Below are positions 1 through 16,055 of a DNA stretch of 64,000 nt, piece by piece. Position numbers and translations under genes: made by a program. Source of the DNA: a virus (taxonomy: Duplodnaviria > Caudoviricetes); the IMG/VR virus record IMGVR_UViG_3300005545_000008, positions 7,529 to 71,528 of that record. One strand, written 5' to 3'. The notes under the pieces are model-generated. The model had not been told where the DNA came from. It did not search any database and saw only the letters and a program-made list of their open reading frames with translations. The stretch's first letter is position 1; each line of letters begins with the position of its first letter.

Positions 1-831
1 AATGAGACGTACGTTGTTTTGAACGAGCACACCGGAGAACAGCTACAGGTCGGTTCAACGTGTCTGAAAGACTTCCTTGGATGGTCTGGCACGGTCGCGT
101 TCCTCACTGATGACGATGTTGAACGTGAAGTCATCGGCTACGTGGGTTCAGGTTCTCCGGTCTACACAACGGAAAGCATTCTCGCCGTTGCTTGGGCCTG
201 CGTGACCACGTTCGGGTACGCCAAAGCGCATGAGGACAATCCCACTAAGGCGACTGTCTACACGGTCATTGCCGCCAGAGAAAACCGATACAACCGAGAA
301 CTGAAAGCGCGAATTGCACCTGTCGCCAAGGATGCTGTTCCGATGGCACAGAAGCTCCGTGAATTCATTCTCTCTGATGAATTTGGTCCCGCCAATAACG
401 ACTACGTCCAGAATCTCAAGACGTACTGTGCAGCCAACACGAACACGGCGCGGTCGTTCGGATTTCTCGCAAGCGTGCCACAAGCATACGCACGGCATCT
501 TGAAAAGACTCTCATCAGAGAGCGTGCCAACGCCAACCGAAAGAACGAATGGATTGGCACGCTCAGAAAGCGTCAGACATTCAAGGTCAAGGTTCGGGCC
601 GTCAAGTGGTTGGAAGACTTCTACAGCCCGTACGGTGGCTCTAAGCCCCTCTACACGCTGATCACAGAGGACGGCTACACACTCAAGTGGTTTGCTTCCA
701 ATGACAGCGTGTTGGGAAAGGACGTCACACCGGAAGATCAGGACTTCTTTGACCTGGTTGGAACCGTTGTGAATCATGAGGAGTATGAAGGTTATAAGTC
801 CACTTGTATCAACCGATGCAAGCTTGGCTGA
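1..831 (+). CDS. Hypothetical phage protein, 5'-truncated; probable C-terminal OB-fold-like domain
   Basis: Frame is open from base 1 (NETYVVLNEH...). QVGSTCLKDFLG motif. Beta-rich C-terminus (KRQTFKVKV...LKWFAS...LVGTVVNHEEYEG) resembles OB folds. Confidence 0.75.
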   Translation, partial: NETYVVLNEHTGEQLQVGSTCLKDFLGWSGTVAFLTDDDVEREVIGYVGSGSPVYTTESILAVAWACVTTFGYAKAHEDNPTKATVYTVIAARENRYNRELKARIAPVAKDAVPMAQKLREFILSDEFGPANNDYVQNLKTYCAANTNTARSFGFLASVPQAYARHLEKTLIRERANANRKNEWIGTLRKRQTFKVKVRAVKWLEDFYSPYGGSKPLYTLITEDGYTLKWFASNDSVLGKDVTPEDQDFFDLVGTVVNHEEYEGYKSTCINRCKLG

Positions 832-845
832 CAAAGGATGATGAG

Positions 846-1001
846 ATGAACAACGCTAAGACCTATTCACAGTTCCTCGCTGGTCTCTCGCCGGACGAAC
901 GACGCAAGTACTACGAACGTCCTACCCCGCTGGACAAGCGCATTCCGACCGGGGTCACTGAATGGGACGCGTCGATTGGCCGTCACGTGGTGATCCGCTA
1001 A
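846..1001 (+). CDS. Small hypothetical early protein (51 aa)
   Basis: AAAGGA RBS upstream of ATG 846; codon style matches neighbours. Confidence 0.6.
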   Translation: MNNAKTYSQFLAGLSPDERRKYYERPTPLDKRIPTGVTEWDASIGRHVVIR

Positions 1002-1037
1002 AACAAATGTCCTGGGTATGACGTTAAAAGGCCTAAG

Positions 1038-1125
1038 GGGAAGTTTTATCGCTGGTCGCGATACTCAGCCAAATACGCTGATGGGATATGTGCGCACATA
1101 TCGGGTTCGATTCCCGAACTTCCCA
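1038..1125 (+). ncRNA. Non-canonical type-II tRNA-like cloverleaf (loop CAAATAC, discriminator A, no encoded CCA)
   Basis: Acceptor GGGAAGT/ACTTCCC; D arm TATCGC-TGGTC-GCGATA; TCAGC-CAAATAC-GCTGA; long variable arm TATGT-GCGC-ACATA; T arm TCGGG-TTCGATT-CCCGA. Confidence 0.7.
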
Positions 1126-1146
1126 CTCCCTAAGAAAGGCAAAACA

Positions 1147-1608
1147 ATGCTCACCATCATTGTTACTGACTGCACTACGGGCAAGGTCACCAACGTTCAG
1201 CCGTTGGACAAGTACATGCCGATTCTTGAGGAGTTCGAGGGTTGGTGCACCAGCCTGACTCGCCTTGGCGGCACGCACGGCCGAGTGACGCTCTGGGACA
1301 CCGAAACGAACATGTCTCAAGGCTCACGTGAGATCAACGTCCCGCGTACGGACATCCGGACCGCCACGACGGATGAGATCCGCACTTGGGTTCGTGATGA
1401 GTGTGGTGAGGAGTACCGCGACAACAAAAAGATTGTTGCCATTAAAAAGACTCGCACGGCGTTCGGCGTCGAACGTGGTTTTGTGCAGCTGGGTTTGAGG
1501 GACGCAAAGGAACACGTTGAAGCCGTGTTCGCGGAACTAGACCAGGAAAAGAAGAAGCTCGCACCGTGCGGTTCACCGAATTGCACTGATATGAATTGCG
1601 AATACTAG
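1147..1608 (+). CDS. Early protein with ribosomal protein bL12 (L7/L12) C-terminal-like domain
   Basis: AGAAAGG RBS before ATG 1147. NKKIVAIKKTRTAFG...LGLRDAKEHVE matches the bL12 CTD pattern KIxxIKxxRxxxGLGLxEAKxxVE. Confidence 0.6.
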   Translation: MLTIIVTDCTTGKVTNVQPLDKYMPILEEFEGWCTSLTRLGGTHGRVTLWDTETNMSQGSREINVPRTDIRTATTDEIRTWVRDECGEEYRDNKKIVAIKKTRTAFGVERGFVQLGLRDAKEHVEAVFAELDQEKKKLAPCGSPNCTDMNCEY

Positions 1609-1637
1609 AAAGACGTCGGGCGGACGTTAAGCGCCAC

Positions 1638-1717
1638 GGGCCGTGTCTTGGGCACAAAGTCAATTCTCATTCCGGAATGGGATTGCACTTAGAGAGGTTC
1701 GATACCTCTACGGTCTA
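1638..1717 (+). ncRNA. Second tRNA-like element (acceptor plus T arm, no anticodon loop)
   Basis: GGGCCGT(1638-44)/ACGGTCT(1710-16) with two G-U pairs; AGAGG-TTCGATA-CCTCT T arm; central long hairpin CAATTCTCATT-CCGG-AATGGGATTG. Confidence 0.5.
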
Positions 1718-2124
1718 CTACCTCCGCATTCCCCGCCAAGAGTGGCCGGGCAACCAATATAAGTCGGAGAGGATTAAGACATGCGACAATGGAACTTTTA
1801 ATTAAGGGGAGTTGGCGGTTATATCAGGCTATTGGTACGTCTGATAGCGAGACCAATTCATTACCCGGTTCTGGCACCTCATGTCTGTGAATCCATTATG
1901 AATAGGGCAGCATTGAATCTGACTGGATTGCGTTTGAACCACGCTGACCAATAGTTACCCCTCGCAATAGTGGGCGGTATCAGTAGGGGCAAAGCATGGG
2001 AGCATGTGAAGGGTTGACGATTCATTGCTAACCTAGGCCATTTGAAATAGGGAAAGCTAAAGGGATTATGACTAGTGTTGGCCACACAGTCCCCTGAACC
2101 TTTCCCGCTTACTTTGGAGTCACA

Positions 2125-2505
2125 ATGTCGGGAAGCAAGATTACCCCGCAAGACACCTACAGCATTTTCGTTGGTTCGGGTGCGCTCTCCTACCCTTGGT
2201 ACGAGATGATCGCATTCAACAACATGGGTGAGGACATTGACCCGCTTGACGATTGGTCAGTGACTTTCGAACTTCCTAGTGAGTTCGCAGAGAATGAGGG
2301 GAAGCGCTACACGCTGAGCCACGCCCTGATTATGCGCACGGTTCACAAGATTGTTCGCGGAGCACAAAAGGGAATCAGTCTCAATGGCGAGGTAAGGAAG
2401 GAATGCCGCGCTATGCTGAGAGATGTTGAGGATTGCGACTTTGACGCGGGAACGGCTGATTGTGTTCTACAGGCGGCGGCGTTCGATGACGTCATCTACT
2501 GCTGA
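2125..2505 (+). CDS. Acidic hypothetical early protein (C-terminal DAGTADCVLQAAAFDDVIY motif)
   Basis: GGAG RBS; C-terminal motif type recurs in phage early proteins of unknown function. Confidence 0.7.
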   Translation: MSGSKITPQDTYSIFVGSGALSYPWYEMIAFNNMGEDIDPLDDWSVTFELPSEFAENEGKRYTLSHALIMRTVHKIVRGAQKGISLNGEVRKECRAMLRDVEDCDFDAGTADCVLQAAAFDDVIYC

Positions 2506-2806
2506 GACGTTCGCCCGATATCTGACAATCGCTTTACTACTAAAGAAGAAAAGTAAAGCGATTGTCAGAATCAATGGTCAGTTGTACAACCCAATTGATG
2601 CCGCTAGGCACTATTGCGGTAGCGAGTCCCTGACACGTGCGGGCGTTCTCGCTGACTACACACGCTGGTTGCGTGCTGGAATCAGGTAGTGTCGTTTAGG
2701 AGGCTGTACAGTCCGCAAAGGGGTGTACAGCCGATAGGGGACACGAACCTACCCCTGAACCAATTGATCTTGTTAGAGAGCAACTGAGAGCCCAAAGGGG
2801 ACTATC

Positions 2807-2980
2807 ATGGCACTGTTCAACGTCAAGGTGACCATTGCTGAGACGGGTAAGCCGACCGTTCGCAGGTTCGAGGGTGACGACGTGCACGCGGCTATTGCAT
2901 GGGGTGAGACGCTGGGACGGGTGAGTGAGGTCGCTCAGGTTCTCGCCGTCTCGCGTACCACGCTTGAAATCATCGCTTAA
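2807..2980 (+). CDS. Small hypothetical protein (57 aa; absent from ORF track)
   Basis: AAAGGGG RBS, ATG 2807, MALFNVKVTIAETGK..., TAA 2980. Confidence 0.65.
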   Translation: MALFNVKVTIAETGKPTVRRFEGDDVHAAIAWGETLGRVSEVAQVLAVSRTTLEIIA

Positions 2981-2984
2981 GGTG

Positions 2985-3230
2985 ATGGATGCAAACAGCC
3001 TAGATCTTTGGCTGAGATGGAATGAGCGTGTGGAATCGGTGCTCATGCATCACAAACCACACACACGAGATGAATTGGACTTGCGTCTAGGGCAAAAGCT
3101 TTTCAACATGCTTGGCGCTTACAGTCCGAATGTTCAAGACAAAATCAGGGGATCAATTGTGGACCCGTTTCACAATGATGATATGGTTCCCGCATTTCTT
3201 GAAAAGGTGGATGAACTGTGGATGCTCTGA
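2985..3230 (+). CDS. Hypothetical protein
   Basis: AAGGTG RBS, ATG 2985 five bases after the previous stop. Confidence 0.65.
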   Translation: MDANSLDLWLRWNERVESVLMHHKPHTRDELDLRLGQKLFNMLGAYSPNVQDKIRGSIVDPFHNDDMVPAFLEKVDELWML

Positions 3231-3448
3231 CTCAGGTTGAGTGGACTGTTGCTGGGGAAGTCATTGACGAGTTTGGCGCTGAGCTGGACGGCATTGTCAA
3301 GAACGGCACCTACGTTGACACCACTTCTGCTGGTTTCCTCATGCACTTCACAAACGCGTTGATTGGGCGTATCGACGCTCACCGCGCGGAGGAAAGCGCG
3401 GCATGGGACATGCACAAGAACAAGAACGATCCTGACGATTGGGTCTAA
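3218..3448 (+). CDS. Acidic hypothetical protein
   Basis: Overlaps previous stop; early-gene codon style. Confidence 0.65.
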   Translation: MDALTQVEWTVAGEVIDEFGAELDGIVKNGTYVDTTSAGFLMHFTNALIGRIDAHRAEESAAWDMHKNKNDPDDWV

Positions 3449-3551
3449 GGAGTCCTGTAGTTAGGCAGACTGGGCAGTCTCAATGAAAGTGATTGGGACT
3501 GTCACAGTCACTGGGTTACAGGAACCCTTTTAAATAACAAAGGATAATGAA

Positions 3552-3935
3552 ATGGCTAAGCTTTCTGACGCGCAGATCAACGCTCTCAAGTTCTATGCGA
3601 ACAATGAGGGTGAGCAGCCGCGAAAGAACACGCGTGATGCCCTTCTCAAGAACGGCTTTCTGACTGATGACAACGCTCTGACTGATGACGCTTTCGACGC
3701 GCTTGGTTGGGAGCGTCCGAGCACGGTTGTTGATGAGATCACCGAACTGTTGAGCACGAACCCTTGGGACGCTGAGATCACGCTCCCTGCTGGTTGGGAC
3801 ATGCGCAAGCGCAACCGCGCGGCATGGGAGGGTCTGACTCAGGAGGAGATCAACGCGGACATCGCTACGGCACGTCCGGTTGCGAACCGTTCAGACATCC
3901 GTTCGGGCAACGTTCTCAAGTCCAAGCACTTCTAA
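3552..3935 (+). CDS. Hypothetical protein, possible N-terminal winged-helix-like domain
   Basis: AAAGGA RBS; LSDAQINAL...NTRDALLKNGFL pattern. Confidence 0.7.
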   Translation: MAKLSDAQINALKFYANNEGEQPRKNTRDALLKNGFLTDDNALTDDAFDALGWERPSTVVDEITELLSTNPWDAEITLPAGWDMRKRNRAAWEGLTQEEINADIATARPVANRSDIRSGNVLKSKHF

Positions 3936-3997
3936 TCGCCCACAAACCAATCAATCAATGACCGGTAAATAACCGGTTCCGTTAAAGGAGAAATGAA

Positions 3998-4729
3998 ATG
4001 TCTGAGACCACTGCTGTTGAGACCCCCGCCGTTGTTGCTGTTGAGACCCCAGCAGTTCGGGTCATCAACATCACCTCAAAGGAGGAGTTCGTCAAGGTCG
4101 CGAGCGAATACGGAATCAAGGTCGGTGAGCGTGGCAATCTTCCCCGTCGTGCCCTGTTCGCTGCTGTTCTGTCGGACATCGTTGACGGAAAGGTCAAGCT
4201 CATCCCCACGGGCTACCTTTCGCCGGACGTGCAGAACAAGACTCCGCGTGAGGCAAAGGTCAAGCCCGTTGTTTCCTACGTGATCACTTACAAGATGGTT
4301 GCGGATGGTGCTCCGTCTGGTGATGACCTCACGCTGTCTCTGACGGAGAACGAAGTTCGTTCCTACCTGCCTCATGTCAAGGGTCAGGTGTCCGCCGCAT
4401 ACGCAACGATGGTTCTTGCCCTGTTCCACAGTGAGGAGAGCACGTCTGTTGCGTCGGTGCTCAAGTACGCTGTGAGTGATGTGGAGCGTGTGGAGTCGTT
4501 CCCCGTCTCTGAGAGCGTCGCAGAGACCACGGAAGAGGCTCCCAAGGGTGATGACACTCAGGAGACGAACACGGACGCTGACAAGACTCCTGAGACCGTG
4601 GAAGAGGTGCACGCGTCGGAAGAGATGATCAACGCTGCCATCGCCGCCGGTGAGGAGGCAGCCAAGGCTGCTACCAAGCCTGCCGCCAAGCCGCGTGCGT
4701 CGCGCAAGACTGTCAAGGCGAACGCCTGA
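3998..4729 (+). CDS. Lsr2-like DNA-binding protein with acidic linker and basic AK/P-rich tail
   Basis: AAAGGAG RBS. EFVKVASEYGIKVGERGNLP resembles the Lsr2 CTD (...GxxVxxRGRIP); tail AAKAATKPAAKPRASRKTVKA. Confidence 0.6.
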   Translation: MSETTAVETPAVVAVETPAVRVINITSKEEFVKVASEYGIKVGERGNLPRRALFAAVLSDIVDGKVKLIPTGYLSPDVQNKTPREAKVKPVVSYVITYKMVADGAPSGDDLTLSLTENEVRSYLPHVKGQVSAAYATMVLALFHSEESTSVASVLKYAVSDVERVESFPVSESVAETTEEAPKGDDTQETNTDADKTPETVEEVHASEEMINAAIAAGEEAAKAATKPAAKPRASRKTVKANA

Positions 4730-4743
4730 TAGTTGTTGAACTT

Positions 4744-4781
4744 TGAGGGAGGAGCGCTAAGACAGGCTCCTCCCTCATTGT
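4744..4781 (+). terminator. Terminator-like hairpin
   Basis: 12-bp perfect stem TGAGGGAGGAGC/GCTCCTCCCTCA, loop GCTAAGACAG, followed by TTGTT. Confidence 0.65.
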
Positions 4782-4823
4782 TGAGCAATTCATGAGGAAT
4801 TGTCAAAAGGAAAGAGATTAAAA

Positions 4824-5075
4824 ATGAATGGCACTGTTTCTGACACGTTCACCATTCAGTACGATTTTGGTATTGAGGGGGCGACAGAGGAAACGGCACG
4901 GTTCGCAGAAGTGTGGGACGGACCCATCATCATTGCTACTTTGATGCGAAAGGGTGGTGATGAGTGGTTGATTGATCATGTTGACACTGACTACGTGGAG
5001 TCGGACCACATCGCAGACGACTACGCAACTGTTGCTGAGTTCGTCGCTTTCATTCATGAGGAGTTGAACGCATGA
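4824..5075 (+). CDS. Acidic hypothetical protein
   Basis: AAAGGAAAG RBS, ATG 4824; ATGA overlap with next gene. Confidence 0.65.
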   Translation: MNGTVSDTFTIQYDFGIEGATEETARFAEVWDGPIIIATLMRKGGDEWLIDHVDTDYVESDHIADDYATVAEFVAFIHEELNA

Positions 5076-5341
5076 ATTACGTTCAAGTAGCGCAGGCTAC
5101 ACGCTGTCATGTTGGAAACAGATTCTTTCTTCAAGCTCAAGCGCAACAAATTGAAGTTCATAGGCACACACGCTCTCTCAACAGTGCCATTGAACACTCA
5201 CGTTTCAGGTTCATTCCCATCAATCGAACAAGGCTTGAGAACGCTAAGGCGGAAGTCAAGAAACTGATTTCATTGTTTGAAGCTCACATGAGTGAGTGTG
5301 ACCGTTGTGCACCTATGAACAAGGTTTTGGAGACGGTGTGA
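5072..5341 (+). CDS. Hypothetical protein
   Basis: ATGA-coupled; HxxxCxxC near the C-terminus. Confidence 0.65.
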   Translation: MNYVQVAQATRCHVGNRFFLQAQAQQIEVHRHTRSLNSAIEHSRFRFIPINRTRLENAKAEVKKLISLFEAHMSECDRCAPMNKVLETV

Positions 5342-5544
5342 ACGCACAGACGGAAAAGGAAACGCGGGACTACTTCCTAAAAGCGTTGTATTACGCATGG
5401 GGTAGGCAGGATGCGGGGGCTGATGTAAACGCTATAGCTTTCGCCAACTGTTACCGTGACAACGCGGCATGTGGACGTGTCATTGGGGTCAAAGACTCCT
5501 TTGACATGTTCATGAATGGCAAAAGAGATTTCAGGCGCGACTAG
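5338..5544 (+). CDS. Hypothetical protein
   Basis: GGAG RBS; GTGA coupling with upstream stop. Confidence 0.6.
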   Translation: MNAQTEKETRDYFLKALYYAWGRQDAGADVNAIAFANCYRDNAACGRVIGVKDSFDMFMNGKRDFRRD

Positions 5545-5577
5545 GAATAAAGTTTTTCAAAGTTACTCCATTTGCGC

Positions 5578-5607
5578 TTGCATAAAGGCTCTGTAGTTGG
5601 ATAAGCT
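5578..5607 (+). promoter_or_regulatory. Housekeeping-sigma-like promoter overlapped by an 11-bp inverted repeat
   Basis: TTGCAT-18-TAAGCT; CTCTGTAGTTG(5589-99)/CAACTACAGAG(5616-26) brackets the -10. Confidence 0.5.
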
Positions 5608-5640
5608 CATGCCAACAACTACAGAGTGAGAGGCCAAACA

Positions 5641-6138
5641 GTGAACAAGGTCAAGATTGTCCAAGCCATTGTGAAGCTCTATTTCATTGGAGCACTGGCA
5701 GGCAGTTTTGTTCACATCATTTCCGCCGCTGAAAAGCTGGGACTGAGTGGCTGGGAGTCATGGTCAACCCCATTCATGATCGACGGGTTGGCACTGATTG
5801 GGATGGTGCTCCGATCAGAAGACTTCTCAGAAGCAACCCGCAAGCTGGGTTTCCGAGTCCAAATGGTGATGGGAGCGTTCAGCCTGGTTGCCAACGTCTA
5901 CGCGGCTAAGAGCATCGGCGGAGTGATTTACGGAGTCATGATCGTTGCTCTCTACATTGCCGCTGAGTGGATCACCGACCGGGTGGAAAGCTCACAGGTA
6001 GACAGAGACCGTGAAACGGCAGTCAAGCGCAGTGAGGCAGCACAGAAAGCGGCACAGACACGCAAGAGCAATGCACGAAAGGCTAAGGCAGCGCGAACCA
6101 AGCAAATCAACCAACTTGAGAAGCAACTCAAGAGCTAG
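5641..6138 (+). CDS. DUF2637-like multi-pass membrane protein (Spd/spread-like)
   Basis: About 4 TM segments; SFVHI...GLSGWESWSTPFMIDG motif; basic coiled-coil tail; GAGAGG RBS before GTG 5641. Confidence 0.65.
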   Translation: MNKVKIVQAIVKLYFIGALAGSFVHIISAAEKLGLSGWESWSTPFMIDGLALIGMVLRSEDFSEATRKLGFRVQMVMGAFSLVANVYAAKSIGGVIYGVMIVALYIAAEWITDRVESSQVDRDRETAVKRSEAAQKAAQTRKSNARKAKAARTKQINQLEKQLKS

Positions 6139-6144
6139 GCAACC

Positions 6145-6178
6145 AGCCCCCATCGCTTAGACAGGATGGGGGCTTTTG
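6145..6178 (+). terminator. Intrinsic terminator
   Basis: AGCCCCCATC/GATGGGGGCT stem plus TTT; loop GCTTAGACAG. Confidence 0.8.
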
Positions 6179-6282
6179 CATGCCCTTAACAGGGTCTGAG
6201 AGAGCCCTACAGCGTTTTAACGATGCTGCCTAGTGTCAAGACACCCGACAAATATTCGATCTTGTTAGAAAGGCGTACAGAC

Positions 6283-6708
6283 ATGCTTGTCTACGGTGTG
6301 AGCGCTCATGAGGTCAGAACGGCCGTTGAGACTGTCTCAGCTGATTGGGATGACAACGTCGAACTCAAGAGCTTGACGGACATGAGCAACAGCCGTGGTG
6401 GTCGCGCTAGCTATGCGTTGCGTGCTGTCAGTTCGCGCAAGAGTGGTGCACGTCGCAGCCATTCAGGCAGGGCAACTATCGCGTCATGCTGGCACGTTCA
6501 CCGTGATGTGTTGCGCGAGTTGTTCAAGATCAACCCGAATGCCCGTGTGGTGTCTGGTTTGGGTGAGCGAGTTGACGGTAAGTTCAAGCGCACTGTTTAC
6601 AAGGGCAGTGATGGTTTTGAGCGTGACTTCCCCGGTACCGCGTGGATCAACGTTGGTTCTGATTGGTACCCCGCTTACATTGGTCAGCTTTGCGATTGTG
6701 GAGAGTGA
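6283..6708 (+). CDS. Hypothetical protein
   Basis: AGAAAGG RBS, ATG 6283; CWHVH and terminal CDC motifs. Confidence 0.7.
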   Translation: MLVYGVSAHEVRTAVETVSADWDDNVELKSLTDMSNSRGGRASYALRAVSSRKSGARRSHSGRATIASCWHVHRDVLRELFKINPNARVVSGLGERVDGKFKRTVYKGSDGFERDFPGTAWINVGSDWYPAYIGQLCDCGE

Positions 6709-6712
6709 AGAA

Positions 6713-7072
6713 ATGTCTTTCGACATTAACGCGTGGTTGCAAGAGAACGCCGATTACCAGTCTGACGATGTGATGTCAGAAAAGGGTCTTGACTATTTCG
6801 AGATTCTTTTGGTTCTTGGCTACATGGTGGAAAACTGCTATATCAATCCGGTGAGCTACACGGAATGGGACGTTAGCCGTCTCCTGAAAGACCTTTCCTT
6901 TGAGGTTCACGCCACAAAGGAAGCGTATGCAACCAGCGTTTTGGTTGCTCAAGAGGAACGCATTCCTGCCGGGGTTTCAGTGGATTGGAACGCAACGGCC
7001 GACTACTTCCTGACTGATCTTCCTCATTACGAGTTGGAAGATGGCAGGGTGGCTGTGTGGCAGGACAACTAA
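6713..7072 (+). CDS. Very acidic protein resembling the ArdA antirestriction C-terminal domain
   Basis: ATG 6713; roughly 24 D/E versus 6 K/R; VDWNATADYFLTD...ELEDGRVAVW resembles ArdA IDxExxARDL...xDG. Confidence 0.5.
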   Translation: MSFDINAWLQENADYQSDDVMSEKGLDYFEILLVLGYMVENCYINPVSYTEWDVSRLLKDLSFEVHATKEAYATSVLVAQEERIPAGVSVDWNATADYFLTDLPHYELEDGRVAVWQDN

Positions 7073-7193
7073 AAAACTAAGTGCTTAGCGCGTGCGCTCA
7101 TTCAAACGCCTTAAATTAAAAAGCCGAAAAGGCGGGGGCAGGGAATGAGCGTAGGCATAATTGCTTAGCAGACACTTAGAAAGGAAAAGAACA

Positions 7194-7421
7194 GTGAGGC
7201 TACTACCTCAAAAACATCGCATCAGCGTAGAGAAGTGGAAGACACTTTATGAGGACGGTGCACCACTTGATTGCGCGGAAGACAGGATCATCCTTTACCA
7301 CATCGAACACATTTGGAAAGAGGAAGCACGCTACGGTAAAACAGAAGACCTGAAAGCATGGTTGGACAAGATGTCAGAGTGGTACGAATTCTTTACTTCA
7401 AACTCGAATTGGGGCGGGTAA
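7194..7421 (+). CDS. Hypothetical protein
   Basis: GAAAGG RBS before GTG 7194. Confidence 0.6.
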   Translation: MRLLPQKHRISVEKWKTLYEDGAPLDCAEDRIILYHIEHIWKEEARYGKTEDLKAWLDKMSEWYEFFTSNSNWGG

Positions 7422-7424
7422 GAA

Positions 7425-7757
7425 ATGAAGTCTTTCAAATTCGATTACAACAACTATCAAGTGCAATACAACGATGGTGAAGTTGAAATCGAGGAACACG
7501 ACCAATGGGGTACTTATGTTGGAAGCGTGACACTCCCCATGCCTGCCTTACTTGAGATTCACGCTAAGGTGGATGAGTTGTATCCATTCCACAATCCCAG
7601 CTGTAATGAGGTCTCAGCGGCACGCGGGGCGTTAGAGAGGGCTAGGGACGTACGTAACGTAGCCAAGCCAGATGCAGTGTTTGAGGAAGCTCTCAGAGCC
7701 TATATGGACATCACCAGTAGGCATAAGGAAGCGTTTGACTGTCAGATCTTCCACTGA
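7425..7757 (+). CDS. Hypothetical protein, N-terminal domain paralogous to next gene
   Basis: FKFDYNNYQVQYNDGEVEI...GSVTLPM..L.EI..KVDELY. Confidence 0.7.
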   Translation: MKSFKFDYNNYQVQYNDGEVEIEEHDQWGTYVGSVTLPMPALLEIHAKVDELYPFHNPSCNEVSAARGALERARDVRNVAKPDAVFEEALRAYMDITSRHKEAFDCQIFH

Positions 7758-7769
7758 AAGGGAAGTGAA

Positions 7770-8150
7770 ATGTACGGCGAATTCAAATTCAGCCACAAGA
7801 ACTATGACATCGAATGGAATGCCGGAGAGCTGACCATTATCGAGTCATACGACGATACGCACATGGGTACCGTCAAGGTCAGCATGAATGACCTGCGAGA
7901 CATCTACCGAAAGGCTGATGACCTTTACAGCTCTTTTGAGCTTTCGCCGGGGGATAGAGTGGTGTTGTCTGATGAGTACCTTTCCAATGGTGGAACAATC
8001 GTCAACCGGTACCGCAATACCATTGGTGTAGTAGAAGAAGTCTTGACGGAATGGGAAGAGAAAGACCCTATCTGCTGGGACTTCCATATCAGGTTCGGAA
8101 ACAATGAGTATTCCAGTGGGGTGCATTGGGGAGATGTAAGGAAGATCTAG
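7770..8150 (+). CDS. Hypothetical protein, shared N-domain plus SH3/KOW-like C-domain
   Basis: FKFSHKNYDIEWNAGELTI...GTVKVSM..L.DI..KADDLY then LSPGDRVVL...IGVVEEV. Confidence 0.7.
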   Translation: MYGEFKFSHKNYDIEWNAGELTIIESYDDTHMGTVKVSMNDLRDIYRKADDLYSSFELSPGDRVVLSDEYLSNGGTIVNRYRNTIGVVEEVLTEWEEKDPICWDFHIRFGNNEYSSGVHWGDVRKI

Positions 8151-10503: not shown

Positions 10504-10675
10504 CTTCTAGCTCCTTAAGTTTTCTTTTAGCATTCAGGATGTCGATCTGGTAGTTATAAATCTTACCTCTGATGTCATCAATTCTGTCACCCAAACGATT
10601 GATTTCCTCATGAGCATCTTGAACTTCGTCTTCAGTCTCATGAATAATTGCTCTTAATTTTTCTATTTCATTCAT
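10490..10675 (-). CDS. Coiled-coil hypothetical protein
   Basis: Heptad-rich; ATGA coupling. Confidence 0.6.
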   Translation of the reverse strand: MNEIEKLRAIIHETEDEVQDAHEEINRLGDRIDDIRGKIYNYQIDILNAKRKLKELEDERT

Positions 10676-10845
10676 TTTGTCGCCTTGTATTCTCTTCCGT
10701 CTTCGTCAATCTTCTTGACATTTTTTAATTTGTATTGTCCTGGATATACTTCTTCTAGTAACATCCATGCTTCTTTATGACTGATCCAATGGGGAGCTTT
10801 CACTGTTGCCCCGGTGGAATCTCTGACTATTTTGATGCTTCTCAT
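10672..10845 (-). CDS. 57-aa hypothetical protein (absent from ORF track)
   Basis: MRSIKIVRDSTG...; ATGA overlaps at both ends. Confidence 0.55.
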   Translation of the reverse strand: MRSIKIVRDSTGATVKAPHWISHKEAWMLLEEVYPGQYKLKNVKKIDEDGREYKATK

Positions 10846-11120
10846 TGCGCCGCCCTTATAATTGATTCTGCTAGATTTCGTATGTATGCCATGACAGCAT
10901 TGGGATGTATCATTGATATGTTTTCATGATCTATAGTGTGTATTCTGTATGGTTTTGAATTATATATTACCCATGCATCACCCGGTGTTTTTTCTAGAAC
11001 TCTTGTTTTCCTTACATCTTTTCTTGCTAGTTCGAATGCTGCGTACCAATACATATCAAAGCTGATGTCTCTATACCCGGCTCGCTTTAGTTTTAGTAAA
11101 GCGAGTGCTCTAAAGATCAC
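10842..11120 (-). CDS. Hypothetical protein
   Basis: Packed leftward operon. Confidence 0.55.
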   Translation of the reverse strand: MIFRALALLKLKRAGYRDISFDMYWYAAFELARKDVRKTRVLEKTPGDAWVIYNSKPYRIHTIDHENISMIHPNAVMAYIRNLAESIIRAAQ

Positions 11121-11397
11121 TGTTCAACTCCTCCCACTTGGCATGCTTGAGCTTGATTGATTCCCAAGACATATCACGTAGCCATACGGCCACTTTGAAA
11201 GACAATTCGAATACCGTGCCATCTTCAAGATCAACGCTTATTGATTCGGCACAGTTGTAATCCTTGTAATTAAGCCATACAAATAGCTTCATCGTGCCCG
11301 GAGACACGGTATTTATAGTGAAGCCTTCCGTATTTACATTGCTTTCTCTGGTGAAGACATCGAAACATTCCTGTACAACAGCCTTATATTTTTTCAT
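11110..11397 (-). CDS. Hypothetical protein
   Basis: GGAG RBS, ATG 11397. Confidence 0.65.
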   Translation of the reverse strand: MKKYKAVVQECFDVFTRESNVNTEGFTINTVSPGTMKLFVWLNYKDYNCAESISVDLEDGTVFELSFKVAVWLRDMSWESIKLKHAKWEELNSDL

Positions 11398-11464
11398 ATT
11401 TTCTCCATAATGTAAGACCCTCGATTTTCACCGAGGGTCCTTTGTTAATCTTCGCTTTGCTAAG

Positions 11465-11728
11465 TTACTTCTTTGATCTAGTTGTTGTCTTTCTTGCTGA
11501 TTGATCAGCTTCTGCTGCCACCGATGTTGATGCTGGTGCATTTGTTCTATTTGATTCACTAGTTACAACTGAATCAGAACTACCAGCGAAGTCACGCAGA
11601 TGTCTTTCTAGATCTTTTACTCTTTTCTCTAAAGCATCAATTGTTGAATCAGCCTTTGCCAATACTTTTGATACGGCTTCTTCAGCATCGTGTCTATTTG
11701 CTTCAAAGAACTCATGTAGTCTACCCAT
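11465..11728 (-). CDS. Coiled-coil protein with low-complexity basic tail
   Basis: GGAGGTG RBS before ATG 11728; TIDALEKRVKDLERHL. Confidence 0.65.
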   Translation of the reverse strand: MGRLHEFFEANRHDAEEAVSKVLAKADSTIDALEKRVKDLERHLRDFAGSSDSVVTSESNRTNAPASTSVAAEADQSARKTTTRSKK

Positions 11729-11787
11729 ATTTTCACCTCCCCGCGCGAGGGGTATTAATAGAGTACCACAATATGAACTAATGTAAA

Positions 11788-11940
11788 CTACCCTGTGTAT
11801 GGATTTCTCCATACACCACTTATAACAATTCTTTTTTGATAAGTAGTCTCAGTTCTGCATTTTGAACACATAATATACGTCTTGCCTTTACGGCGTGCAT
11901 TATATGTTACTGCGCCACAACATTTTGATTTCTTACTCAT
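11788..11940 (-). CDS. 50-aa zinc-finger-like protein (absent from ORF track)
   Basis: MSKKSKCCGA...MCSKCRTE. Confidence 0.5.
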   Translation of the reverse strand: MSKKSKCCGAVTYNARRKGKTYIMCSKCRTETTYQKRIVISGVWRNPYTG

Positions 11941-12036
11941 TTCTTTTCAACCAAATCTCTCAGTTTTATTTTCTTATTGCAATTAGAACATATGTTTGTT
12001 TGCTTTCCACCATTCCATTTTATTGCAATTCTTCTC

Positions 12037-12438
12037 TTACAACACTTTGTTACTAATGCCATTACGATCCTCGAATATAAGTATATAACCAATATTTTTA
12101 ATTGAACGACGCTTATTATAGGTTGGGTCCCATACCACCTTTAGATTATTATCGACCAATACGGCATGGTCGTTATTTCTTCCTGATGGAGATCTTCCCA
12201 CACCTACCATTTTGTCAGGCAAATCAATCATATTGATTTCATCATCAAACAGTATGCTCATCTTGAAGCCTTTTTTATTTGCCCAAATCTTTAGCTTGGC
12301 TAACCAGTCCTTGGATGCTGATTGCTTGCCATAGAAGGGCACCTCGTCATAATTGATATCAAGAAGCTTAGATAAGCATGCTGTTAGACAACCGTCTTTT
12401 TTATAGTAGGTGATCCAATCACTTCTTCTTTTTGGCAT
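12037..12438 (-). CDS. Putative papain-fold (C39-like) peptidase
   Basis: DGCLTACL (Cys), GRSPSG..DHAVL (His), VWDP (Asp) spacing. Confidence 0.5.
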   Translation of the reverse strand: MPKRRSDWITYYKKDGCLTACLSKLLDINYDEVPFYGKQSASKDWLAKLKIWANKKGFKMSILFDDEINMIDLPDKMVGVGRSPSGRNNDHAVLVDNNLKVVWDPTYNKRRSIKNIGYILIFEDRNGISNKVL

Positions 12439-12631: not shown

Positions 12632-13076
12632 TCAAAGGCTCCTTTGTGACATCAACTTTCGCGGGGAACGGAACTCTTACTGGTTGCCATCTAGGACTTA
12701 CAGGAACCTTATCAAGCCAAGGATAGACAGCCCACTGATCCCATGTAGCAGTAAGAGTGATCTTCTGTTTTACATATTTCACTGGCCATTTTTTGACAAT
12801 CCAACGCATAAACCATGTATCAGCATACATGTCTTTGAAAAACTGCCATGGATTCTTTGGAGTATTCAATACTTCTGTTCTTGTCTCAGTAAATGATGGA
12901 AGCTTTTTACCTAGAACCCTCGCATTAAGTTTATACAGAGATTGATCTCTAAGAAAAGACCAAGAATCTTTTACTATTGATTGCTCATACGTAACCCCTG
13001 GAAGCATTTCATTTTGAACGTACCTCGCTTCTTGAAATTGCAACCATTCAAAAATTTCTTCTTTAAAATAATCCAT
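12579..13076 (-). CDS. Hypothetical protein
   Basis: ATG 13076 in TAATG overlap with the exoribonuclease stop. Confidence 0.65.
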   Translation of the reverse strand: MDYFKEEIFEWLQFQEARYVQNEMLPGVTYEQSIVKDSWSFLRDQSLYKLNARVLGKKLPSFTETRTEVLNTPKNPWQFFKDMYADTWFMRWIVKKWPVKYVKQKITLTATWDQWAVYPWLDKVPVSPRWQPVRVPFPAKVDVTKEPLSEPEKSESRASEESSKS

Positions 13077-13603
13077 TATTTGTATGTTTCCCAAACTCTC
13101 TTGTTCCACTTTGCATCATACAAAGCGTGATGTTCGATTTCTGGTTTGAAATCAATTTTTCTATCTTTGATAATTTCTGTCTTCAAATCATGAGAAAACA
13201 TCGGAATAGGTTGAGGCAGTTTGATCATTGGTCCAAAAATCTGAGCGAGTGCTACATGATCATAAGATACATAATAGCCCCAAAGTTCTACATGCTTTCT
13301 TTCGAAATATGTCCCACCATCTGAAATGAAATCGAGAACGTGTCCTCCCCAATTTTCGTAATCAACTCCATATCTATAAATGTCTTCTTGAGTGATGTGA
13401 TCGCACACATTTACACAAAGCCAATTTGTTAAAACGGATGGATGCCCTCTCCATTCATATCCTTCTAAATCAATATAGGATTGCATGTACCCCCTATTGA
13501 TTAAATATAAATCGCGGCCGTCTTCCGATGTCATTCCGAGCGAAATTGGAATAATTGTTGTTCCATCTTCCTCAAATTCTAAGTCATAAAAATATCTCTG
13601 CAT
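13076..13603 (-). CDS. DEDD 3'-5' exoribonuclease, RNase AS/Rv2179c-like
   Basis: YFYDLEF...ISLGM..EDGR...WGYYVSYDHV.L.QIFGPMI.LP..IPMF..DL...EHHALYDAKW; GAGGAG RBS before ATG 13603. Confidence 0.88.
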   Translation of the reverse strand: MQRYFYDLEFEEDGTTIIPISLGMTSEDGRDLYLINRGYMQSYIDLEGYEWRGHPSVLTNWLCVNVCDHITQEDIYRYGVDYENWGGHVLDFISDGGTYFERKHVELWGYYVSYDHVALAQIFGPMIKLPQPIPMFSHDLKTEIIKDRKIDFKPEIEHHALYDAKWNKRVWETYK

Positions 13604-13683
13604 TGCGCTCCTCGCGTGTATGCGCTGCCTGGTGCTCGTCCGCACACCCGATAGCGCAGTCGTATAATTGTTATTTTCTGTTA

Positions 13684-13800
13684 GGGGTGACGTCACCCTC
13701 AGTTTTTATAGGCTTTTCATGCGTCACCCCCAGGTGACACGTCGGGTGACATGCTATTTTCCTGGGGGTGACAACAAGGGTGACGTCGGGTGACGTCACC
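13684..13800. repeat. clt-like repeat array directly after the traB-like stop
   Basis: 9 copies of GGTGAC/GTCACC in 116 nt (five exact GGGTGAC at 13685, 13744, 13766, 13778, 13788); GC-rich island in AT-rich DNA. Confidence 0.8.
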
Positions 13801-13801
13801 A

Positions 13802-15664
13802 TCACAGCACTATCGTATAGGTGAAATCATCCTTTGTCAAGGACCCATCGGCTACCAATTTACCTAGCTGCTTATGCAACCATGCTCGTGATCTACCTGT
13901 TACAGTCAATACGTCTGATAGGTCGGGTGCATTGAATTGCATGACTCCAGATTCCTTAAATTCTGATATGCGTTCTTTAAGAACTTTGAGTGCTTCATCT
14001 GAAGCCATCTCTGTTTCTGCTTCATCAAATTTTAAGAAAACATTTTCAAACTGAGATTCCAATTCTTTTAATTCCTCTATCTCTATTACTATATCTTCTT
14101 TAAAGTCGTCATCTTCGACATCAACAATATGTGTTGGTTTAACAACAGTTTCAGACTTTTTACTAGCCTCGAATATATCTGCTAGACTTTCCATTGTAAT
14201 TGGATCAATCGGTTCCATCTTATGAGCATTTGCTGCGTCATAAAGTTGTTGATCTGTTATCAAAGAGCACCTGAGTGCCTCTGTCCACATTTCTTGATCA
14301 ACTTCTGGATGAACCAAATACGCATATCCAGGCTTACTATTGCGCCATACAGATGGATCTGCACCAGCATCTACAACGTCATCAGGGAGCGCAAATTGCG
14401 CATCTGCGATATCTTGAACACCAAAACACATAACAGCTGAGAATTGTGCTCTAGCTGCTGTATCAATTGCTACATAACTTGCTCTTTGAAGAGAAGCAGT
14501 AATTGCAATCCCAACAGAACGTGCCGTCTCCATCATTTTGATGAAGGCTGGATTATTGGCGATAAGCCCTGATGCCTCTTCAATATGAACATACAAGAAT
14601 GTAAGTCCTGATTCTTCGTCCCATTTAGTCTTATTCATACTACCAAGTTTATCTGCACGATCCTTAATTGTTCTAGCAAATCTCTTGAATAAAGCCTCTG
14701 CAAGTGTTTCTTCTGATATAACTAGATGGATTCCATTTCTTGCAAGATTAAGAGTCTGATTCCCCTTGGTGATATCAATAACAATGAGTGCTGATTTTCT
14801 ATGATTGAAGGCTCTTGCAAATATTACTTTTGCGCCTTCAGATTTACCAGATCCATTCATACCCTGGATTAACATGTGAATACCACCAAGTCGCTCTGAG
14901 TGTAGATTAAATTCAGCTGGATCACCAGTCTCATACTTACCTACAATAAATTTATCATTAGCGCTTGTTCTTTGTGTATCTGGTATATATGGAACTATTT
15001 CATTTAGTAAATCTCTTTTTGTTATTGTGAAATGACCTCGCGATGCATCATTTCTATCTGGTTTTATTTTTACTGCATTTTTTGGAGCCTTGAACAAACT
15101 AGCAAGATGCGTCTTATACTTTTGCGCATCATCAATTGTATTTTTTCCTCTTTTAACTTGGATTATGCCTTTAAATCTATCCTTTGTGTTTTCTAAAATA
15201 GTAGTCTTGGTGTCATCCAAGCCATGATCCTTAAAGAAGTCTCGCATTGGATCATCACGCTTCTCTGATTTAATAGCTCCTCGAATATTCCAAGAGCCAC
15301 AGAGAGCTAGTCCAAACACAAGCCATACGAGCGATACAATTGGATTCCATGGGGCGTATAGAACGGCAAAGCCTAGCCATATGCCTACAGATGCCAACGT
15401 AAATACCGCATGAAATCTTCCAAAATCACGACGGGTTCTAGAGGCACGCCACATAAATATTCCAAGTGAGGCAGTACATGCTAGAACACCAATAACTATC
15501 CAGTTGTAGGGATTATCAAAATAATCAATATGCCCTACCAACCACAAAACGATAGATAGTATCGCTGTTCCTATCCAAGCTAGATATGGTTTTAACAACA
15601 CCATACCGCTTGAGGTAATACTATCTATCGCCTTGTATTTTATACGTTTTGCTAAATAACTCAC
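13802..15664 (-). CDS. traB: TraB-like FtsK/SpoIIIE DNA translocase
   Basis: About 4 N-terminal TM helices; Walker A GMNGSGKS; Walker B YVHIEEA; ARSVGIAITASLQR; C-terminal wHTH (DLSDVLTVTGRSRAWLHKQLGKLVADG). Confidence 0.8.
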   Translation of the reverse strand: MSYLAKRIKYKAIDSITSSGMVLLKPYLAWIGTAILSIVLWLVGHIDYFDNPYNWIVIGVLACTASLGIFMWRASRTRRDFGRFHAVFTLASVGIWLGFAVLYAPWNPIVSLVWLVFGLALCGSWNIRGAIKSEKRDDPMRDFFKDHGLDDTKTTILENTKDRFKGIIQVKRGKNTIDDAQKYKTHLASLFKAPKNAVKIKPDRNDASRGHFTITKRDLLNEIVPYIPDTQRTSANDKFIVGKYETGDPAEFNLHSERLGGIHMLIQGMNGSGKSEGAKVIFARAFNHRKSALIVIDITKGNQTLNLARNGIHLVISEETLAEALFKRFARTIKDRADKLGSMNKTKWDEESGLTFLYVHIEEASGLIANNPAFIKMMETARSVGIAITASLQRASYVAIDTAARAQFSAVMCFGVQDIADAQFALPDDVVDAGADPSVWRNSKPGYAYLVHPEVDQEMWTEALRCSLITDQQLYDAANAHKMEPIDPITMESLADIFEASKKSETVVKPTHIVDVEDDDFKEDIVIEIEELKELESQFENVFLKFDEAETEMASDEALKVLKERISEFKESGVMQFNAPDLSDVLTVTGRSRAWLHKQLGKLVADGSLTKDDFTYTIVL

Positions 15665-16002
15665 TTTATCGTGAAGTCCGGCTTCACTGCTTTCTTTACA
15701 GAAGCAGCCTCGGATAGTTCCATGGCAAAACGATTCTCAAATAGAGTCCAAGTTTTTTGCACACCACCGCCTGCTATTTTAAAGGCTTCAGCGACACCTT
15801 TTAGTGCAGTCGCAACAATTCTTGCTCGTGCAGTGTTTTTGATTCCTTTAACATTAGCCAGCCTTTGCTGTAGCATCTCGGCTGACCATGAGACTTCAGT
15901 GTAGAGGTCATAACACAAAACTTTTAGAGTGTCCAGGTATCTCTTCAGCGCAATATTGTCGCTGAGATCTATCTCTCCCAGTTCATCTATTCTTTTTGAC
16001 AC
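15661..16002 (-). CDS. TraA-like plasmid transfer accessory protein
   Basis: AAGGAGGTG RBS; GTGA coupling to traB; RARIV...LKGVAEA...F...F..EL pattern recalled from actinomycete TraA proteins. Confidence 0.55.
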   Translation of the reverse strand: MSKRIDELGEIDLSDNIALKRYLDTLKVLCYDLYTEVSWSAEMLQQRLANVKGIKNTARARIVATALKGVAEAFKIAGGGVQKTWTLFENRFAMELSEAASVKKAVKPDFTIK

Positions 16003-16026
16003 TTCTTCGTGTCACCTCCTTATGCG

Positions 16027-16055
16027 AGCGTAACATACATGATTATGTATGTCAA
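16027..16055 (-). promoter_or_regulatory. Consensus promoter with palindromic operator for traA-traB
   Basis: TTGACA-17-TACGCT; ACATACAT-N4-ATGTATGT (16033-16052) fills the spacer and overlaps the -35. Confidence 0.75.

Follow-up and report, generated by a model that had tools for sequence, protein, structure and literature searches.

What role does a dense array of short repeats play when it lies beside a gene for a conjugation-type DNA pump in the genome of a tailed phage? The question is posed by a 117-bp array at positions 13684 to 13800 (minus strand) of the window, the 64,000-nucleotide stretch of DNA analyzed here, taken from a 71.5-kb IMG/VR virus record rated by CheckV as about half complete. 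The array comprises nine (T/C)GTCACC units and begins 1 nt past the stop codon of a traB-like gene. Mycelial actinomycetes conjugate by a system, TraB and its cis-acting locus, clt, that needs one protein and transfers double-stranded DNA. We consider it probable, at about two chances in three, that the array is a phage clt, the cis docking site of a TraB-type dsDNA translocase.

On the positive strand, GGTGAC is found at 13686, 13733, 13745, 13767, 13779, and 13789, and GTCACC is found at 13692, 13723, and 13795. All nine hexamers lie within 13686 to 13800, in agreement with the number of units reported in the initial annotation. Read on the traB strand, six units are direct (13794-13789, 13784-13779, 13772-13767, 13750-13745, 13738-13733, and 13691-13686) and three are inverted (13800-13795, 13728-13723, and 13697-13692). 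Five of the direct units follow in succession, at spacings of 10, 12, 22, and 12 bp, and the sixth is part of a distal palindrome (13685-13698). A proximal palindrome (13789-13800) marks the other end of the array, and the word GTCACCCGAC occurs twice on the traB strand (13741 and 13785); both the palindromes and the repeated word had been described in the annotation. An AT-rich box, CTATAAAAA on the traB strand (13703-13711, minus), lies after the run of direct units and before the distal palindrome.

The annotation proposed a count of the motif across the genome. The 71.5-kb record contained 33 GGTGAC/GTCACC hexamers, nine of them clustered in the array and 24 elsewhere. The expected number per 117 bp was 0.04 as opposed to the nine seen, with a Poisson P of ~6e-19, or 4e-14 once multiplied by every window position. 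When the spacer that holds the array was shuffled 100,000 times, the maximum was 3 hexamers. The GGGTGAC heptamer occurred 10 times in the window as opposed to the 3.3 expected, a number reached in 0 of 100 shuffles; 7 of the 12 heptamers in the record were in the array, and their count elsewhere equaled the chance expectation. The record contained this one array and no second cluster.

The 198-bp spacer (13604-13801) separates two minus-strand genes, traB and a gene for a DnaQ/Rv2179c-like 3'-5' exonuclease (13076-13603, minus; Pfam PF16473, E = 4e-8; PHROG 2259, E = 2e-36). Judging from its homologs, the exonuclease most likely starts at the ATG at 13603 rather than at a GTG at 13696, which leaves the spacer non-coding. 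The GC content is 56% in the array, 55% in the whole spacer, and 39% in the flanks, and the earlier description of a GC-rich, non-coding array in AT-rich DNA was accurate.

The traB-like gene (13802-15664, minus) encodes a 620-aa FtsK-type dsDNA translocase. The protein matches the NCBIfam model plasmid_TraB (NF041214, E = 5e-107) end to end, with residues 24 to 613 aligned to model positions 6 to 625 of 639. The score of 359 bits is below the equivalog cutoff of 800, and the protein is classified from its sequence as a divergent TraB homolog, below the level of a certified equivalog. In a large protein collection, its nearest cellular relatives were Streptomyces plasmid transfer proteins TraB, with 26 to 32% identity over 90 to 98% of the length (E of ~1e-54). 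A tblastn search of plasmids with the window TraB matched 51 records, 45 of which came from Streptomyces. These matches included pWTY27 (NC_013667.2, E = 8e-38) and an 11,143-bp plasmid of S. phaeochromogenes, NC_001759.1, which is presumably pJV1. In a tree of TraB sequences, the phage proteins formed a clade of their own with a support of 100/100.

The AlphaFold model of the protein had a pLDDT of 86. The best PDB matches of the modeled motor domain were FtsK motor domains (E = 1e-16), with Walker A at residue 268, and four hydrophobic N-terminal segments were modeled as helices. Residues 555 to 620 were modeled as a helix-strand-helix-helix-strand-strand domain, which, folded alone, reached a pLDDT of 96 and gave winged-helix matches with Z up to 10.3. 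The predicted architecture is that of TraB: N-terminal membrane helices, an FtsK-type motor, and a C-terminal winged helix. For the C-terminal domain, modeling establishes the fold class alone. A specific identity with FtsK gamma was considered and dropped: the Foldseek match (70 residues) was weak (E = 0.02), and VIA-align returned generic winged-helix matches that did not single out the gamma domain.

The start of traB is overlapped by a gene for a 113-aa TraA-like protein (15661-16002, minus), which matches NCBIfam plasmid_TraA with an E of 6e-7, below the cutoff. Its ortholog in a related phage locus (62% identity) carries the Pfam domain PF28214, TraA-like. A direct BLASTP comparison of the window protein with TraA of pWTY27 gave no match, so the link to TraA comes from profile models only. 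A promoter-like TTGACA-17-TACGCT element with an internal palindrome (16027-16055, minus) was read 5' of traA-traB. The lone GGTGAC found 5' of traA (15990-16020, minus) is accounted for by an extended Shine-Dalgarno sequence (AGGAGGTGA) and does not count among the array units.

A gene for a DUF2637 membrane protein is located at 5626 to 6138 on the positive strand (Pfam PF10935, E = 3e-8, above the cutoff). The same family sits two genes 5' of traA-traB in pWTY27 and pFP3, from which we infer a link of the gene to the tra module. DUF2637 was undetected in a complete 132-kb relative of the phage; the full plasmid-like spread apparatus is therefore not conserved. The gene lies within a compositionally distinct part of the window: the GC content is 47 to 55% in positions 1 to 8000 as opposed to ~39% elsewhere. 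The high-GC first 8 kb also contains the sole tRNA-like element found (1038-1126), distant from the array.

From ~8 kb on, the window is phage DNA of 39% GC that carries genes for the portal, lysin, tail, and nucleotide metabolism. The portal protein is 46 to 49% identical to those of the cultured 120- to 134-kb Streptomyces phages Tomas, StarPlatinum, Karimac, and Coruscant. We take these phages to be lytic members of cluster BE. Contigs of the relatives that share the TraB-like protein reach ~117 to 140 kb, and one of them is a complete genome of 132,127 bp with direct terminal repeats. Neither a tyrosine nor a serine integrase was found in this complete relative. A partition centromere (parC/parS type) was also considered for the array and is disfavored, since no ParB_N or ParA-like (AAA_31) match was found in the complete relative or in the record of the window.

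A tblastn search with TraB gave no match among 50,697 GenBank phage records; the cassette therefore marks an uncultured branch. GenBank phages searched with the DNA and the proteins of the locus likewise gave no match, and structural genes such as the portal gene were the sole link to cultured Streptomyces phages. More than 60 distinct TraB sequences belong to the clade, and their contigs are up to 140 kb long. By sequence comparison, the TraB pump and the array belong to the conserved core of a phage clade that is widespread, uncultured, and distantly related to the 120- to 134-kb Streptomyces phages. The host is probably a mycelial actinomycete, as judged only from the nearest cultured phages.

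We then evaluated how widely the array is kept. The phage loci fetched for this comparison encode TraB proteins 42 to 92% identical to that of the window. Absence of the array beside the traB homologs of relatives, which the annotation had named as a result that would tell against it, was not observed: all 17 phage loci that extended far enough downstream carried an array, located 0 to 1.6 kb 3' of traB. When 13 phage relatives were scanned for clusters of 6-mers without reference to the motif, the array ranked first or second in density in 11, and the two exceptions, a degenerate array in L012 and a short mixed array in L036, were recognized by reading. Loci L010, L013, L016, and L017 were read directly rather than scanned. 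Overall, of the 23 loci reaching that far, 21 had one of their two densest short-repeat clusters 3' of traB, namely, the 11 phage relatives and all 10 actinobacterial loci. The sequence of L037 stops short of any array position, and L038, whose TraB is 31% identical to that of the window, displayed just a vague AT-rich repeat pattern. In the complete 132,127-bp relative, no second cluster with three units in a row was found.

When the window was aligned with five close relatives, the units were invariant and the invariant columns fell mainly within units; the spacers between units differed in both sequence and length. Units were retained down to ~42% TraB identity. The conserved unit, as read from these sequences, is (T/C)GTCACC and not CACCCGAC, the word whose likeness to 8-bp TraB recognition sites had been noted; that word is not conserved among the relatives. 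Over 24 loci, the distances between direct units peaked at 11 to 13, 21 to 22, and 32 to 33 bp. Given these peaks, with steps of about 11 bp or its multiples, the units would share roughly one helix face.

The array is not tied to the stop codon of traB. In many relatives, one to five genes (0.2 to 1.6 kb) separate traB from the array, including HNH/NUMOD4 homing endonuclease genes, a HAD-like gene, GmrSD-like genes, and small open reading frames. The insertions between the traB stop and the array were mapped to 5854-6100 in L007, 5863-6240 in L009, 5842-6222 in L011, and 5900-6985 in L008; in L009, the 3' end of the inserted gene runs into the first units of the array. Where genes intervene, the array remains directly 5' of a conserved block, which in the window (13604-13668, minus) consists of the word TACGACTGC, a GC tract of alternating purines and pyrimidines, and a ribosome-binding site, and which is shared with the phage relatives. 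The array thus stays with the downstream block rather than with the traB stop.

The TACGACTGC word is unique in the record. A similar word followed by an alternating GC tract, whose composition is prone to form Z-DNA, was read at 6336-6405 in L009, 7354-7432 in L014, and 6668-6745 in L015. The predicted RNA fold of the block was no better than that of shuffled sequence (z of -1.3 to +1.0), and an Rfam scan of 8 to 24 kb found no credible family in the spacer; an RNA element is therefore not supported. A T7-type promoter word, TACGACT, lies beside the array and is unique in the record; hence, it does not represent a repeated phage promoter. The last traB codons contain a promoter-like TTGACA-17-TACGAT element (13812-13840, minus; 10 of 12 matches) that, if active, would transcribe through the array. 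The conservation of this element could simply reflect the conserved C-terminal peptide of TraB.

The closest experimental counterpart of the array is the clt of pWTY27. In this plasmid, transfer requires, in cis, a 175-bp segment whose start lies 16 bp within the tra gene, and the Tra protein footprints four TGACACC repeats, the DC1 repeat of clt (Wang et al. 2012, PMC3583192). The protein is called TraA in that study and TraB in the annotation of NC_013667.2. Reading the plasmid sequence directly, we found four direct TGACACC units followed by inverted copies. The phage locus resembles it in having a homologous translocase, a traA-traB gene pair, and an array at the 3' end of the tra gene in which 7-bp units are direct on the tra strand and are followed by inverted copies, with the same orientation relative to tra. 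The plasmid unit, TGACACC, and the phage unit, TGTCACC, are one base apart, and the plasmid likewise has a DUF2637 gene near traA-traB. The two systems differ in their carriers. pWTY27 is a 14-kb Streptomyces plasmid with a GC content much higher than the 39% of the phage flanks and with four core units, whereas the phage array has nine units and belongs to a tailed phage with relatives of ~117 to 140 kb. Binding and the requirement in cis were demonstrated for pWTY27 only; the phage array is known from sequence.

The pWTY27 parallel is the strongest argument that the phage array is a homolog of clt and not a mere look-alike. This reading is supported by the protein homology, the conserved synteny, and the non-coding layout shared with the experimentally mapped clt of pWTY27. 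The same three points sustain the central proposal of the annotation, a clt-like array for the adjacent TraB translocase, and three details did not survive: the unit word, a tie to the traB stop, and the mixed orientation as a departure from known clt loci. As for the last of these, the clt loci of pWTY27, pJV1, and pIJ101 also combine direct and inverted repeats (PMC3583192), and actinobacterial traB loci likewise display direct units followed by inverted ones. The clt/TRS loci of pSVH1, pJV1, and pIJ101 are bound by TraB-family proteins as well, but their units are unrelated to those of the phage (e.g., CCGCACA[C/G][C/G] in pJV1).

Similar arrays accompany traB in actinobacterial genomes. 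In loci L018 to L028, the TraB proteins are 25 to 28% identical to that of the window (37% over a partial match in L025) and have a recognition helix with the conserved Arg-x-Arg-x-Trp core. The densest or second-densest repeat cluster again lies just 3' of traB, and the elements succeed one another as in the phages: first direct units and a TCTGACC word, then an AT-rich box with inverted units behind it, and finally an alternating GC tract before the next gene. The units are mostly TGACACC, with TGACGC or GTCACAC in some loci. The AT-rich box is of a TATAGG type at the same position, and an equivalent box was found at the matching point in the related phage loci read. An alternating GC tract similar to that of the phages lies at the corresponding place (e.g., L018 6010-6040). 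Four of the actinobacterial loci read differ from the phage in having a second array 5' of traB. These second arrays, built of CTGACACC units, overlap the ribosome-binding site and the start of traB (3885-3960 in L018, 3885-3950 in L021, 3870-3945 in L023, and 3835-3900 in L026). To judge from their placement, arrays that bracket traB in these elements may serve autoregulation.

Two further systems invite comparison. In FtsK, the C-terminal winged helix (gamma) of the motor reads a short DNA word, KOPS, and so selects the substrate, much as proposed here for TraB. However, KOPS are dispersed and polar over the whole chromosome, whereas the phage units are concentrated in one local cluster and show no enrichment elsewhere; a KOPS-like, genome-wide, strand-polar distribution was apparent neither from the heptamer counts in the record nor in the complete relative, with its single cluster. 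[quoted passage not shown] 2010; PMC3583192, PMC4487206). It resembles the window phage as a phage-forming replicon with conjugal transfer genes. It differs, according to the same citations, in being maintained as a plasmid and having ParA/ParB, whereas the complete relative of the phage shows no ParA-like, ParB, or integrase gene.

The predicted recognition helix comprises TraB residues 593 to 605, within the winged helix at 555 to 620. Its Arg-x-Arg-x-Trp core is invariant from plasmids to phages, and the variable residue two positions past the Trp (residue 597 in the window) tracks the fourth base of the unit. His597 was paired with TGTCACC at 10 loci, and Arg597 was paired with TGTAACC at 4 loci; Tyr597 was found with TGTTACC at 2 loci and with a TGTCAC-type unit at 2 others. 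The Arg/TGTAACC pair was first seen in L015, and three Arg loci fetched later carried the predicted TGTAACC. The Tyr locus L034 had TGTTACC, matching L008. In the TraB tree, the Arg loci fall into two non-sister lineages; thus, protein and DNA changed together at least twice.

The check for co-variation between the repeat and helix 3, which the annotation had suggested, showed that residue 597 and unit base 4 changed together in two or more lineages, with Tyr597 occurring alongside two different units. We regard the co-variation as suggestive of TraB binding. It falls short of proof because kinship alone yields such patterns for any phage-encoded binder and because Tyr is ambiguous. The natural series of units and helices (His/C, Arg/A, and Tyr/T or C) provides a ready test set for DNA reading by TraB winged helices.

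Would a function other than docking account for the array equally well? It could be purely a transcriptional control element, operator- or enhancer-like, that acts on the downstream genes and is bound by the TraB winged helix or another regulator. In eight sister-clade loci, the terminal inverted unit serves as a -35 element, with a TAnnnT -10 element at 17 to 18 nt, and the -35 hexamer follows the local unit variant (GTTACA where the units are TGTAACC). The distance of the array from traB, its persistence by the conserved downstream block when genes intervene, and the promoter that this block includes in sister clades fit a transcriptional role at least as well as docking, and the second, same-unit array over the traB start in actinobacterial loci suggests autoregulation. 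However, the clade of the window lacks the -10 segment, and no promoter was detectable there by the same rule. Because the array is fully maintained in this clade all the same, regulation cannot be the whole explanation there. In addition, five to nine phased direct units far exceed the needs of an operator, and the homologous region of pWTY27 is required for transfer (PMC3583192). A purely transcriptional array is thus unlikely in our estimation. The transcriptional and docking roles are compatible rather than exclusive, and the sister-clade sequences make a regulatory side-role likely in part of the family.

Direct repeats in phase, with inverted copies on either side and a short AT-rich box, are also reminiscent of iteron origins, in which case the units would be iterons of a phage replication origin and the box would be its unwinding element. 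Neighboring genes with products that act on DNA (exonuclease and ThyX) agree with this possibility, which we nonetheless judge to be quite improbable. The genes adjacent to the array are traB and the exonuclease gene and not an initiator gene, the AT-rich box is short (~9 to 20 bp), and the unit co-varies with a TraB helix. The GC-skew does not turn at 13.7 kb; its turn occurs at ~22 to 23 kb, where the direction of transcription switches. The homologous region of pWTY27 is not an origin either: the replication iterons of that plasmid are at 338 to 606, have a different sequence, and lie more than 9 kb from clt (PMC3583192). We give very little credence to the idea that the cluster terminates transcription, has a structural role, or signals packaging, or that it is a relic with no function at present. 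The proximal palindrome was flagged as terminator-like on the traB strand, but its hairpin has no T-run and is not conserved among relatives. A packaging signal would be oddly placed, as in the complete relative, whose genome has terminal repeats, the array is located mid-genome and distant from both the ends and the terminase gene. The units are also kept across TraB divergence down to ~42% identity.

If the array is a clt, the phage would make a membrane-anchored, TraB-like, FtsK-type ATPase, presumably a hexamer by analogy, whose C-terminal winged helices would recognize the 7-bp (T/C)GTCACC units, arranged as successive direct copies with inverted copies as their boundaries, around a short AT-rich box. 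From the homology with pSVH1 and pWTY27 (PMC3583192, PMC4447253), we infer that TraB hexamers assemble on the array through these winged helices. The bound array would mark phage DNA as the substrate, and the motor would pump the marked DNA through a membrane pore at the expense of ATP. In a mycelial host, replicating phage genomes could be moved in this way across septa or into adjacent hyphae without virions. In the sister clades, where the last inverted unit doubles as a -35 element, occupancy of the array would probably tune transcription of the downstream genes.

The analysis suggests that the cassette could allow an apparently lytic phage to move naked DNA, too, between host cells or compartments. 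A bolder proposal is that the clade keeps a working traA-traB-clt cassette that pumps replicating genomes across hyphal cross-walls or into neighboring hyphae during infection, as a conjugation-like means of virion-independent spread; this is tentative, with the odds somewhat against it. Outside plasmids and integrating elements, the sole published phage link that we traced is the plasmid-phage pZL12. The novelty lies in the carrier: the phages of this clade are large, and genes for lysogeny or plasmid maintenance were not detected in its complete member, which has terminal repeats. A second particular point is the clean natural series of unit variants. If the plasmid mode of action applies to the cassette, there is a second, particle-free route of spread for lytic-type phages of multicellular bacteria. 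Such a route would bear on plaque dynamics, the mycelial containment of infection, and phage-driven gene mobilization.

Two minor observations concern the surroundings of traB. In pWTY27, a gene annotated as a phage major capsid protein lies ~0.7 kb past clt (L029 4175-4812; pWTY27 10642-12102), which again points to exchange between TraB plasmids and phages. In the phage relatives, small genes with Pfam Acb5 or Acb2/Tad1-hairpin matches (anti-CBASS/Thoeris sponge families) were found a few kilobases from traB, at 3383-3589 in L009, 3040-3297 in L011, 7706-8032 in L012, 7964-8200 in L031, and 8647-8889 in L033. These neighbors place the cassette among early counter-defense genes.
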